A DNA stretch of 64,000 nt from an uncultured Muribaculaceae bacterium. GTDB lineage: Bacteria > Bacillota_I > Bacilli_A > RF39 > UBA660. The number at the start of each line of letters is the position of its first letter. Within the stretch, counting starts at the first letter, position 1. Both the position numbers and the translations under genes were made by a program. Below, piece after piece: positions 8,497 to 11,736 of the stretch. The stretch spans positions 135,448 through 199,447 of the forward strand of contig CAYNFP010000001.1 in the NCBI GenBank assembly GCA_964396655.1, in the 5' to 3' direction. The notes below the pieces were generated by a model. The model did no database searches. It was not told the DNA's origin and was given only the letters and a program-made list of their open reading frames with translations.

Positions 8497-9060
8497 ATGG
8501 TAGATATAACAAGATTTAATAGTTTTAAAAAATTAATCGAATATAACAATAGTATTCGTGAGGAATTTGACAAAGTAGATCAACAAGTACAAAAAATTGT
8601 TAAGAAAATTGTTTCTGATAATTCATACAAAGAAGAGCTTTGGAGGAATACAAAGTATATTGAAAAATTGGAAAAATTAAAAGGATTAGGGCTTACAGGG
8701 ACAATAGGTTATACTATTGATTCTGTTGTAAATGATCATAATAATTATTTAATCGAAGAATTTCATAATACTGATTTATATGAATTATATTGCTCATTAG
8801 GATATGAATGTGAAGAATTAGAACAAGTTTTAGTAGTTTTCGCAAGAATTGAAGCAAATTTAAAAACTTTGAATTTATCAGAAGAAACTATTGATGTAAT
8901 AATTGAGAATATATTTCAAGAATATAAAAGAAGTTTATTGGAAAGACTTCAATATGAAAAAAGTGCTGAGGCATATCGAAAAACAGCTGGAGAAGAAACA
9001 TATAAAACTGATCTTATGACTCTTGGTTTAAAAAATATGCCATCTCAAAATGAAGGCTAA
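8497..9060 (+). CDS. hypothetical acidic protein, paralog A1 (EEFHN motif)
   Basis: Paralogous to 10511-10927; shares the N-terminus and an identical YLIEEFHN motif. Confidence 0.5.
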   Translation: MVDITRFNSFKKLIEYNNSIREEFDKVDQQVQKIVKKIVSDNSYKEELWRNTKYIEKLEKLKGLGLTGTIGYTIDSVVNDHNNYLIEEFHNTDLYELYCSLGYECEELEQVLVVFARIEANLKTLNLSEETIDVIIENIFQEYKRSLLERLQYEKSAEAYRKTAGEETYKTDLMTLGLKNMPSQNEG

Positions 9061-9142
9061 TAAATAAAAAAATATTATAAGAGAATTGTTCTTATAATAT
9101 TTTGTGATAATATAATTGTCAATAGAAAGAGAGAAATAAAAA

Positions 9143-9934
9143 ATGAGTGAAATTTTAAAGTTTAGTACATATAAAGAAATGGATGCATTTTATGGAGAAA
9201 TCAAGTCTTTAGATATTGTGCTTAATTCCTTTAGCTATGGAAGGGATCATATGACAGAAATGTCATATATTTTAGAGGATTATTATGAAAAAATTGCAAA
9301 TAAAGCAATTAAAAACAGCAAAATCGGAGAATCAACACTTAAAATAAAAGAACGTTATAAAGAATATTATAAATATCTATTGAATGAATTTAAAAAATTA
9401 TTAACAGAAGAAGCAAAAGAATTAATTCCTTGGGTAGCTTATGAAATGAATAGTTTTTCAAAAATAAAAGAAGCATTTAGTTTAGAAATAGAAAAAATAG
9501 TTACAAGTGGTGAATTTATAGAAATATTAAAAGAAGCATTATTAAAAGTAACAGGAAGAACTTATTCTTATCATAAAATTTTTGGAAGAATAGTATATGG
9601 TGAAATAGATGGGGATTCAGATAAAATTTTAAGTAATAATCCTTTGGGTAAAAAAGAATATGAAATCTTAGTGGCAGATGATTTCCCTTTAACAAAATTA
9701 CCATTTTCAGAGTTTGAAAAACCTCTTGAAATAGAAATAGAAGAACTGATAAAAGCAAATTTTGTAATATTAGATAATCCTTTTCATAGTGATTTTTCAT
9801 ATTGGGAAAGTCATTTTTGGGAATATGAATTTATTGGTATGCCAAAAGGAGCATATGAAATAATAAATGAAGAAATATTTAAAAGGGTAAAAGAAAATTT
9901 AGAAAATAGTGTTAAATTAACTAGAGAAAAATAA
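9143..9934 (+). CDS. hypothetical acidic protein, paralog B1
   Basis: Paralogous to 10987-11736 (shared ELIPW/ELLPW, DDFPL.KLPF/DDYDI.KVPF and GMP motifs). Confidence 0.5.
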   Translation: MSEILKFSTYKEMDAFYGEIKSLDIVLNSFSYGRDHMTEMSYILEDYYEKIANKAIKNSKIGESTLKIKERYKEYYKYLLNEFKKLLTEEAKELIPWVAYEMNSFSKIKEAFSLEIEKIVTSGEFIEILKEALLKVTGRTYSYHKIFGRIVYGEIDGDSDKILSNNPLGKKEYEILVADDFPLTKLPFSEFEKPLEIEIEELIKANFVILDNPFHSDFSYWESHFWEYEFIGMPKGAYEIINEEIFKRVKENLENSVKLTREK

Positions 9935-10022
9935 AATAATTAAAATTAGATATTTAAATATCTAATTTTTTATGATTTGACATTTATTTATTAATATAAT
10001 ATTCTATATTTAAGAGGTAATT

Positions 10023-10499
10023 ATGATAAGAGGATACAAGGTTTTTAATAAAGATTTTACTAATAGGTATGGTAAGAAGTTTGAAGTTGGTCAAACTTAC
10101 TCTGCTGATGGTCAAGTTAAGTTTGCTGCTGCTCATGGAATCCATTTCTGTACAAATTTAGAAGATGTTTTTAGATATTTTGATGCTGTTGAAGATGAAG
10201 TTACAGTAGCGGAAGTTTCAACAGAAGATTGTGGTGAAAATCTTGTAAAATATGATGAAGAATATAATGGTTATTATGATATGTATGCTTGCAAAACTAT
10301 AAAAATAGAAAGAGTGTTAACAAGAGAAGAAATATTTGAGATGATTATGAAAAAGGGGGAAATTTCAATAAGAAAATTTTTAGCTACTTATAAATTAAAT
10401 GAAGAAGAGAGAGAAAAATTTTTAAGAATGAACACTAATAAATTTTTAAATGGAATATTTGAATATTATCAAAATAAAAATACTTCATATTTTAAATAA
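10023..10499 (+). CDS. hypothetical protein (spacer gene between the paralog pairs)
   Basis: 158-aa ORF with unusually GC-rich codon choice at its 5' end (gct gct gct cat gga atc cat ttc tgt). Confidence 0.4.
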   Translation: MIRGYKVFNKDFTNRYGKKFEVGQTYSADGQVKFAAAHGIHFCTNLEDVFRYFDAVEDEVTVAEVSTEDCGENLVKYDEEYNGYYDMYACKTIKIERVLTREEIFEMIMKKGEISIRKFLATYKLNEEEREKFLRMNTNKFLNGIFEYYQNKNTSYFK

Positions 10500-10510
10500 A
10501 GGAGATATAA

Positions 10511-10927
10511 ATGATAGATTTAGCAAAATATAGAGACTTTGAAGAATTAATTAACTATTATAATGAAATTAAAGAAGAGTATGAAGATTTGAAAGAAGTT
10601 GTAGATGAAATAGATAATTTTATTGTTGCTAATCCGAGTTATTTACTTGAAGTTAGTCAAGAGTTTATTGAAAATGTGAAAATGACAATTCCAAGTATAT
10701 TTAAACAAAATGATTTAATAAATTATGAGAGATATAGATATGTGGATTATCTTATAGAAGAATTTCATAATTCAGAAATTTATATTACATATTTATATAT
10801 GACATATGAAGTAGATCAAATTGGTATTATATTATCCGCAATGTATAAAAATGACAACTTGCCAGAAGAAACTGTTAATAAAATAAATGAATTTATATTT
10901 GAGGAATATAAATTATTAAGAAAATAA
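10511..10927 (+). CDS. hypothetical acidic protein, paralog A2 (EEFHN motif)
   Basis: Homologous to 8497-9060. Confidence 0.5.
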   Translation: MIDLAKYRDFEELINYYNEIKEEYEDLKEVVDEIDNFIVANPSYLLEVSQEFIENVKMTIPSIFKQNDLINYERYRYVDYLIEEFHNSEIYITYLYMTYEVDQIGIILSAMYKNDNLPEETVNKINEFIFEEYKLLRK

Positions 10928-10932
10928 TATTA

Positions 10933-10961
10933 TTGACAATAACAAAAGAATTAAGTACAAT
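10933..10961 (+). promoter_or_regulatory. sigma-A-type promoter TTGACA-N17-TACAAT upstream of paralog B2
   Basis: TTGACA at 10933-10938 and TACAAT at 10956-10961, with 17-nt spacing. Confidence 0.5.
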
Positions 10962-10986
10962 ATTTTCTTGAAATGAGGAATATTAG

Positions 10987-11736
10987 ATGGAAATATTAGA
11001 AAATTTTAAAAGTTACGATGAATTAAGGGCATATTTAGATAATTTAGAAATTATTGAAAATGAAGAAGATTATGTATCTTACTTTGGAACATCTTATGAT
11101 AAAGACTTTAATATAGAAAAATATTGTGAAGAATTAGCTAAAAAAGAAATTCAAGAAGCTGAAATTAGTCAAAATTTGATACAATATGAAAAAATAAAAA
11201 TAATTGAAAAATATAAAAGATATGCTAGATATTTATTAGGTGAATTTGAAAAAACATATTATGAAGATATGAAAGAATTACTTCCTTGGTTGGTTTATGA
11301 AAATAAAATTGCTGAAAAAATTGAATGTAAAATACGTGATTTTAGACTTAAAATGTTGGAAAGTAAAGAATATATAAATATTATTATAGAAAAAATGCTT
11401 GCTTTTACTGGAAAAAACTATTCTTTAAAAAAACTTACTTTTAAAACTAAAGGGAAGTTATCTGGTGGACAATTTGAAAAATTAAGTCCTTGGTGGAATG
11501 ATGAAGAAGTAAATTTATTTGTAATTGTATCAGATGATTATGATATACAAAAAGTTCCATTTGAAGTCTTTTCAAATCCTAGTCAATACCCGGAGTATTA
11601 TAAAAATTTCGATTTTATTTTATTAGATAAAAACGGGATATATGTATGGGCGTTATTCGGTATGCCTGAAGAAGTTTATGATGAATTAAATGAAATAACT
11701 TTTCAAAAAATGAAACTTGAACTTGCAAAAAAATAA
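10987..11736 (+). CDS. hypothetical acidic protein, paralog B2
   Basis: Homologous to 9143-9934. Confidence 0.5.
   Translation: MEILENFKSYDELRAYLDNLEIIENEEDYVSYFGTSYDKDFNIEKYCEELAKKEIQEAEISQNLIQYEKIKIIEKYKRYARYLLGEFEKTYYEDMKELLPWLVYENKIAEKIECKIRDFRLKMLESKEYINIIIEKMLAFTGKNYSLKKLTFKTKGKLSGGQFEKLSPWWNDEEVNLFVIVSDDYDIQKVPFEVFSNPSQYPEYYKNFDFILLDKNGIYVWALFGMPEEVYDELNEITFQKMKLELAKK

Follow-up and report, generated by a model that had tools for sequence, protein, structure and literature searches.

An array of four diverged paralogues, which profile comparisons assign to a single, previously undescribed superfamily of soluble acidic proteins, occupies the gap between eno and rpmB in a 64,000-nucleotide stretch of DNA from an uncultured low-GC bacterium of the Bacillota (the window, by which we mean the whole stretch analysed; 24.7% GC, very AT-rich). 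A fifth gene, C, is a mobile-element-type gene that interrupts the array and has no relation to the other four, which we call A1, B1, A2 and B2. Since the architecture of the array is closest to that of the tandem immunity paralogues of type VII secretion system (T7SS) toxins in Bacillota, we infer, tentatively, by analogy and with a probability of roughly 0.3, that the A and B proteins are non-catalytic protective binders of the orphan-immunity type.

The five open reading frames (ORFs) lie on the plus strand, each a few bases downstream of a purine-rich, Shine-Dalgarno-like ribosome-binding site (RBS), and their coordinates are exactly those given by an earlier reading of the letters without database searches (the sequence-only reading):

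8497–9060, plus strand: A1, ORF with RBS, 187 residues, isoelectric point (pI) 4.9, short-form superfamily member
9143–9934, plus strand: B1, 263 residues, long-form superfamily member
10023–10499, plus strand: C, 158 residues, DUF7666 protein, unrelated to A and B
10511–10927, plus strand: A2, 138 residues, pI 4.3, short-form superfamily member
10987–11736, plus strand: B2, 249 residues, long-form superfamily member
7189–8436: eno, upstream flank of the array
11753–11920, minus strand: rpmB, convergent, downstream flank of the array
12015–14918: dnaE, beyond rpmB

Gene order in the window is thus femAB (minus strand), a DUF6879 gene, eno, the five-ORF array, rpmB and dnaE, and the base composition of the array is that of its flanks. 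All five proteins are acidic (pI 4.3–5.6), and none belongs to a housekeeping family in Pfam, PHROGs, PADLOC and NCBIfam scans, both as the sequence-only reading had proposed.

Within each pair of like-named proteins the relationship is evident from direct alignment. A1 and A2 are 32% identical over 148 residues (E = 9e-19), B1 and B2 31% identical over 263 residues (E = 1e-25), with Smith-Waterman z-scores of 20 and 28.5, respectively; none of 300 composition-matched shuffles reached the observed score, and by this alignment evidence both pairs are true paralogues. The motifs quoted in the sequence-only reading are present, namely YLIEEFHN in A1 and A2 and EL(I/L)PW, DD(F/Y)xxxK(L/V)PF and GMP(K/E) in B1 and B2, although the spacing in the second B motif is three residues, not two.

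The link between A and B is clear only with an eight-member B profile and not from pairwise alignment, which taken alone was not significant (z 1–3); hhalign of two-sequence A and B profiles aligned the C-terminal helix only. A hidden Markov model (HMM) built from eight B proteins only and run against 237 window ORFs placed B1 and B2 first, followed by A1 (E = 1.6e-5) and A2 (E = 3.8e-5); the next window ORF had E = 0.32. The match is colinear, pairing B residues 1–94 with A residues 1–88, a span that runs from the N-terminal M-x-x-I helix through the Y-L-(I/L)-x-E-F helix, and B residues 239–257 with A residues 117–135. Because a B-only profile recognises A1 and A2 colinearly at both ends, we place A1, A2, B1 and B2 in one superfamily. 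An N-terminal HMM from members outside the window gave A2, A1 and B1 as its top three window matches, and the DNA itself shows the 3′ block as repeats (families D1 and D2), shared by B1, A2 and B2 and also by the two A genes.

The sequence-only reading had described a duplicated, ordered A–B pair. Paralogy stands, as does the A–B order seen twice in the window; duplication as a unit describes the array less well, since A is itself homologous to B, a hairpin parts A1 from B1, and relatives carry the order B–A (assemblies L005 and L006), A alone (L004) or B alone (L007, L008 and L012).

Members of the superfamily share an N-terminal module (M-x-x-I-x-x-F-x-x-Y-x-E-L-x-x-Y-Y), a central helix (Y-L-(I/L)-x-E-F) and a C-terminal helical module ((L/M)-P-x-E-x-x-x-x-I-N-E-x-I-F-x-E-Y-K), and these end modules are conserved down to 20–25% overall identity. 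The short form, A, has about 140–190 residues; in the long form, B, of about 250–260 residues, an extra helix and an alpha/beta module of about 145 residues are inserted between the shared ends. An AlphaFold (AF2) model of B1, with a predicted local distance difference test score (pLDDT) of 79 and a predicted template modelling score (pTM) of 0.65, has a helical bundle at its N-terminus, a small alpha/beta insert module and a long helix at its C-terminus, and the C-terminal module of B2 was modelled with pLDDT 81 and pTM 0.73. Structural searches returned no similarity to any known fold or immunity family; the insert, as modelled, has a fold that is new to every library searched.

Invariant positions across the two families are nearly all hydrophobic, aromatic, glycine or proline (M, Y, Y, L, E, I, F and K in A; Y, V, P, F, G, M and P in B), and the family is apparently non-enzymatic, with no hint of a catalytic site. 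Neither A nor B proteins contain a hydrophobic segment or signal peptide, the maximum 19-residue Kyte-Doolittle average being at most 1.02.

The superfamily is rare. Scans of A1, A2, B1 and B2 against Pfam, PHROGs, PADLOC and NCBIfam gave no family above threshold, matches being limited to C and the DUF6879 gene, and Pfam scans of 17 superfamily members gave no family common to any two, not even below threshold. An exhaustive HMMER search of 1.84 billion representative proteins with a B1 and B2 profile recovered eight proteins in all; word-indexed searches of 5.8 billion clusters recovered five A-type proteins, and B1 alone found only itself in the same search. No relatives were found in phage genomes, IMG/VR, BFVD or JGI metagenomes, including by tblastn of B1 against phage genomes and by an A profile in JGI metagenomes and IMG/VR, and a conserved 36-mer from the rpmB–dnaE spacer found nothing in metagenomes. 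A femAB scan of genome contigs and other collection scans yielded only one ‘Bacilli bacterium’ metagenome-assembled genome (MAG), which carries the distant B homologue P0011. The superfamily is confined to a few related low-GC Bacillota.

Several candidate identities were rejected. PDB sequence matches to TBP, ScdA and M2-1 were at chance level. A match of the B insert to the YefM antitoxin (E = 0.16) had no backing from the fold search, and a significant match, fold or adjacent toxin gene of the Phd/YefM type II antitoxin kind was not found. A DNA mimic of the ArdA/Ocr type, prompted by the acidic N-terminal motif, was discarded for want of a sequence or fold match or extreme negative charge.

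An identical five-gene block occurs in three read-set assemblies of one project. We compared the eno–rpmB interval of the window with that of three other assemblies having the same flanking genes:

L004 (enolase 97%, FemAB 94% identical): a single A gene between eno and rpmB; no DUF6879 gene upstream of eno
L005 (enolase 91%, FemAB 73% identical): genes encoding 214, 281, 255 (P0008, B2-like, 47% identical to B2), 133 (A) and 116 residues; DUF6879 gene upstream of eno
L006 (contig begins at the 3′ end of eno): a B1-like gene (P0009, the closest relative of B1, 35% identical), an A gene, a gene encoding 274 residues, and at least one more

Nearly all of the extra proteins in L005 and L006 start with the N-terminal module, and several end with the C-terminal module. 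The interval is hypervariable, with gene number, order and sequence differing between close relatives, and its content differs among members of what is probably a single genus. The sequence-only reading had proposed this survey and had named conservation of the five-gene block across the order as the result that would count against it; the survey instead showed one gene in L004 and other arrays in L005 and L006.

Proteins of the array have changed much faster than those around them. Nei-Gojobori ratios of non-synonymous to synonymous divergence (dN/dS), which are rough estimates in a very AT-rich (25% GC) genome, were 0.57 for A2, 0.47 for B2 and 0.49 for the DUF6879 gene, compared to 0.04–0.15 for eno, femAB and rpmB. 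Synonymous divergence (dS) was 0.39 between A2 and its L004 counterpart (flanking genes 0.19–0.42) and 0.90 between B2 and its L005 counterpart (flanking genes 0.36–1.2), so that at equal synonymous distance the array orthologues show about ten times more non-synonymous change than the flanks, a protein-level speed that may be likened to that of conflict genes. The equality of both dS and composition with the flanks indicates that the array was inherited vertically with fast protein evolution, rather than imported recently.

The lone gene of L004 has a mosaic structure. Up to its tenth codon, upstream region included, it agrees with A1 (MTDITRFNSF versus MVDITRFNSF), and the two leaders are nearly identical; over the body it follows A2, with 80.5% nucleotide and 63% amino-acid identity; and its last codons and terminator resemble the 3′ end of B2. 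The simplest reading is that a longer array collapsed by crossovers in the shared 5′ and 3′ coding blocks, or that the reverse process took place.

Garrett et al. (2022; PMC9484751) describe two systems with similar behaviour. EsaG (DUF600) proteins of the Staphylococcus aureus T7SS locus form strings of tandem, non-identical, small acidic cytoplasmic paralogues with blocks common to all copies, which mediate copy gain and loss; copy number differs between close strains, and recombination between paralogues in these blocks gives chimeras. TipC paralogues at the streptococcal telC locus likewise form arrays of variable length shaped by intergenic recombination, with conserved 5′ and 3′ blocks round a variable centre and recombination between paralogues. 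The eno–rpmB array has this architecture, namely a string of several non-identical paralogues, conserved end blocks, a variable centre, copy-number differences and, as a chimeric gene suggests, recombination between copies.

The array nonetheless differs from both systems. Unlike EsaG, the A and B proteins have no DUF600 match, their two forms differ by a whole inserted module, and they are encoded between housekeeping genes with no EsaD-type (EsaD/EssD) nuclease toxin or ess genes at the locus; TipC is an outward-facing lipoprotein, whereas A and B lack a signal peptide or membrane segment, show no sequence relationship to it and have no telC-like toxin nearby. No cognate toxin or T7SS locus adjoins the array, which in the window, L004 and L005 is flanked by femAB, the DUF6879 gene (absent from L004), eno, rpmB and dnaE.

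Immunity genes without a cognate toxin are also found in orphan immunity arrays of the type VI secretion system and in recombinase-associated Bacteroidales defence islands, where they vary between strains and sometimes lie beside a recombinase. Such orphan or acquired immunity islands are mobile and mix many unrelated, widely distributed immunity families. The distant homologue P0011 also lies next to a recombinase; the array itself, unlike such islands, consists of a single rare superfamily with dS as in its flanks and apparent vertical inheritance. The protein superfamily is new to every library searched, and its genomic behaviour, that of a recombining array of diverging paralogues, is of a known kind; what is unusual is the setting, a gap between convergent core genes without toxin or secretion system, and the dichotomy of short and long forms.

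In the immunity reading that we favour, A and B proteins would bind singly, with no obligate partner gene, and would neutralise incoming protein toxins, or foreign proteins of another kind, by stoichiometric binding. Specificity would lie in the variable centre and the insert, while the conserved termini would serve as structural scaffold and, at the DNA level, as homology blocks for recombination between paralogues, by which the repertoire would expand, collapse and reshuffle as in esaG and tipC.

The sequence-only reading had also likened the genes to an immunity array. The architectural precedent of esaG and tipC and the fast evolution speak for this part of it, whereas a toxin, a secretion gene and a known immunity fold are all missing. 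Several points weigh against immunity. None of the four versions of the locus contains a toxin, secretion-system or delivery gene, and the 64-kb neighbourhood in the window has no toxin candidate; there is no sequence or structural likeness to any known immunity family. Immunity families directed at common toxins are usually widespread themselves, in contrast to the extreme rarity of this one (eight B-type representatives in 1.84 billion, and five A-type). The one T7SS neighbourhood, around a distant B gene described below, is a single case, parted from that gene by an unrelated gene and with a WXG100 score below threshold. Recombination is deduced from one chimera in one genome, and the present end blocks are only about 70% identical in DNA. 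Finally, a dN/dS of about 0.5, itself a rough estimate, is as compatible with relaxed constraint as with an arms race.

Should the proteins be immunity-type binders, they would add a new superfamily and a new fold to the repertoire of interbacterial conflict, and recombining immunity repertoires in core chromosomal gaps, far from toxin and secretion loci, would have been missed by toxin-centred mining. The wider proposal, that these are immunity-like or anti-effector binders of a new superfamily with short and long forms and an insert of new fold, encoded by a self-recombining array at a chromosomal hot spot and uncoupled from toxin, secretion system and mobile element, and form a vertically inherited ‘immunity repertoire’ in uncultured low-GC Bacillota, seems to us rather unlikely as a whole. 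Whatever its function, the locus illustrates cleanly and on a small scale how an array turns over through end blocks, with short and long forms arising by module insertion and about tenfold protein divergence; its wider impact is modest, the family being confined to a few uncultured organisms.

A possible, if somewhat doubtful, alternative is that A and B are helical proteins of the cytoplasm, lineage-specific, weakly constrained and uninvolved in conflict (they might be adaptors, scaffolds or accessories of sporulation or stress), which build up, duplicate and decay in a permissive gap between convergent terminators. The dN/dS values, below 1, would suit such proteins and weigh against immunity, as would flank-like dS and composition, the narrow taxonomic range and the lack of any partner, toxin or mobile-element signature; a B gene split in two in L011 suggests ongoing decay. 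Proteins of this kind would hardly be expected to keep intact ORFs with an RBS in the four window genes and in all genes of L005 and L006, or end modules that persist at such low overall identity, and the turnover in copy number, already seen at 97% enolase identity, is faster than expected of neutral bystanders.

Gene C and the DUF6879 gene bear on a second alternative. C matches Pfam PF24703 (DUF7666) over residues 2–106 above the gathering threshold (56.1 bits against a cut-off of 27, E = 5.3e-15) and phrog_14105 (E = 2e-11), and over its N-terminal 53 residues it shares 47–49% identity with proteins encoded by Clostridioides phage AR1086-1 and by 130-kb plasmids. In phage and plasmid collections its relatives occur only in accessory regions of a 130-kb Clostridioides phage, of similar-sized plasmids and of a Paenibacillus plasmid. 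The DUF7666 proteins of Clostridioides phages and phage-plasmids have an N-terminal domain like that of C but are longer, some being annotated as pentapeptide-repeat proteins, whereas the C-terminal part of C is short, helical and different. In L006 an A gene comes straight after the B1-like gene with no C in between, which suggests that C was inserted later, between B1 and A2. The sequence-only reading had suggested a search for a toxin domain in C and had called its codons atypically GC-rich. Pfam, PHROGs, PADLOC and NCBIfam scans matched no toxin domain, only the DUF7666 assignment. Nor is C unusually GC-rich: its GC content is 0.262 against 0.247 for the window (at third codon positions 0.139 against 0.11–0.13 in its neighbours), and the GC profile has no more than a local peak of 0.28 there. 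Separately, residues 101–150 of C (10323–10472) gave weak PDB sequence matches to phycobilisome linker domains (E = 6e-4 to 0.01), probably a chance match to a helical motif.

The DUF6879 gene is another accessory insertion or deletion at this locus: the window and L005 have it (proteins 50% identical), and L004 lacks it. It is bracketed by a direct repeat of 51 nucleotides (family D4), whose two copies are 80% identical:

6530–7132, plus strand: DUF6879 gene, Pfam PF21806, 73.4 bits against a cut-off of 23.9, E = 1.9e-20, above the gathering threshold
6479–6529, plus strand: repeat copy 1, forming the DUF6879 leader
7142–7192: repeat copy 2, directly 5′ of the eno start codon (leader and RBS of eno)

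L004, without the gene, has one leader copy, before eno, and the gene looks to have been gained or lost by recombination or target duplication.

Distant B genes occur in other surroundings. P0011, in the ‘Bacilli bacterium’ MAG (L007), lies directly beside the gene for a 523-residue large serine recombinase. On the same contig, the intervals 2808–3696 (minus strand) and 5797–7368 (minus strand) hold adjacent paralogues of 115 and 116 residues (37% identical, with no family) and the recombinase beside P0011, and about 1.5 kb without an ORF above 92 residues precede the contig end, possibly the edge of an integrated element. At a distance of about 1 kb from P0013, in L008, are genes for an EssC-like FtsK/SpoIIIE ATPase and for a series of WXG-like proteins of about 100 residues. 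This T7SSb-like cluster (2289–8214) comprises six consecutive helical proteins of about 100 residues, one with a sub-threshold WXG100 match and two with W-x-G, and, on the opposite strand, the ATPase of more than 1245 residues; an 85-residue protein in the cluster, which from its sequence we take to be YukD-like, gave no such match in Pfam. In L011 (237–1019) the B gene is split into a 117-residue N-terminal half and a 135-residue half with the insert and C-terminus. This split gene, a decaying pseudogene or else a naturally two-part version, immediately precedes a methyltransferase gene that is likely trmB by its Pfam Methyltransf_4 matches. Another distant B gene is on a short contig. No partner gene recurs beside the distant B members, which suggests that the proteins probably act on their own.

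Hypervariable content at a fixed locus, fast evolution and acidic proteins would also be compatible with a hot spot of anti-phage defence or counter-defence, in which phage or mobile-element proteins would be the targets of A and B, acting as sensors, decoys or inhibitors, and C and the DUF6879 gene would be further cargo of one island; the phage and phage-plasmid relatives of C and the recombinase next to P0011 point the same way. We consider this unlikely. The locus encodes no nuclease, ATPase, NTPase or other effector domain and has no integrase or att repeats, and A and B have no homologues in phages or IMG/VR. The duplicated defence module envisaged in the sequence-only reading likewise found no counterpart in PADLOC, whose sole match to the five proteins was a chance-level Cas8a fragment in A2 (E = 0.007).

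The predicted all-helical N-terminal halves and the surroundings of P0013 raise the prospect that A and B are substrates or targeting partners of type VIIb secretion, in which the conserved N-terminal helix would mediate secretion or docking and the variable rest would be the cargo. This is improbable, as A and B gave no WXG100 or LXG match in Pfam, all four variants of the locus lack a T7SS gene nearby, and the C-terminus, far from being a polymorphic toxin-like domain, is conserved. That A and B form a toxin–antitoxin-like pair duplicated as a unit, as their repeated order and the weak YefM match of the B insert might hint, is largely refuted and highly improbable given the homology of A to B, the hairpin between A1 and B1 and the changing order and solitary occurrence of the genes in relatives.

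Returning to the window, the predicted signals for transcription are as follows:

9069–9103, plus strand: terminator-like, A/U-flanked hairpin between A1 and B1 (inverted repeat I21), −12 kcal/mol, z −4.1, 1 of 200 shuffles as good
9942–9969, plus strand: terminator-like hairpin with U-run after B1, −8.7 kcal/mol, z −3.4
11740–11767: bidirectional terminator common to B2 and the convergent rpmB, from a terminator scan, −8.3 kcal/mol
10933–10961, plus strand: promoter-like TTGACA-17-TACAAT before B2, 11 of 12 consensus positions

The bidirectional terminator is conserved in L004 and L005. No hairpin was found after eno (8434–8496) or after A2. With no terminator between eno and A1, A1 may be co-transcribed with eno, and C and A2 are probably co-transcribed because only 11 nucleotides separate them; the hairpins after A1 and B1 argue against an A1–B1 operon. 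The likely transcription units are thus eno–A1, B1 and C–A2–B2. The promoter that the sequence-only reading had assigned to B2 does match the consensus, but matches of this kind number 56 in 5.2 kb of AT-rich DNA, where shuffled sequences give 42.7. The best promoter-like match of the region lies elsewhere, on the minus strand of the A1–B1 spacer and directed towards A1 (9094–9122, TTGACA-17-TATTAT, 11 of 12); it may be a chance match in AT-rich DNA or an antisense promoter.

Elsewhere in the window, a full-length OLE (ornate large extremophilic) RNA was found at 42406–42969 on the plus strand (RF01071, 356 bits, E = 5.5e-101), its 3′ end overlapped by an ORF that starts at 42891.

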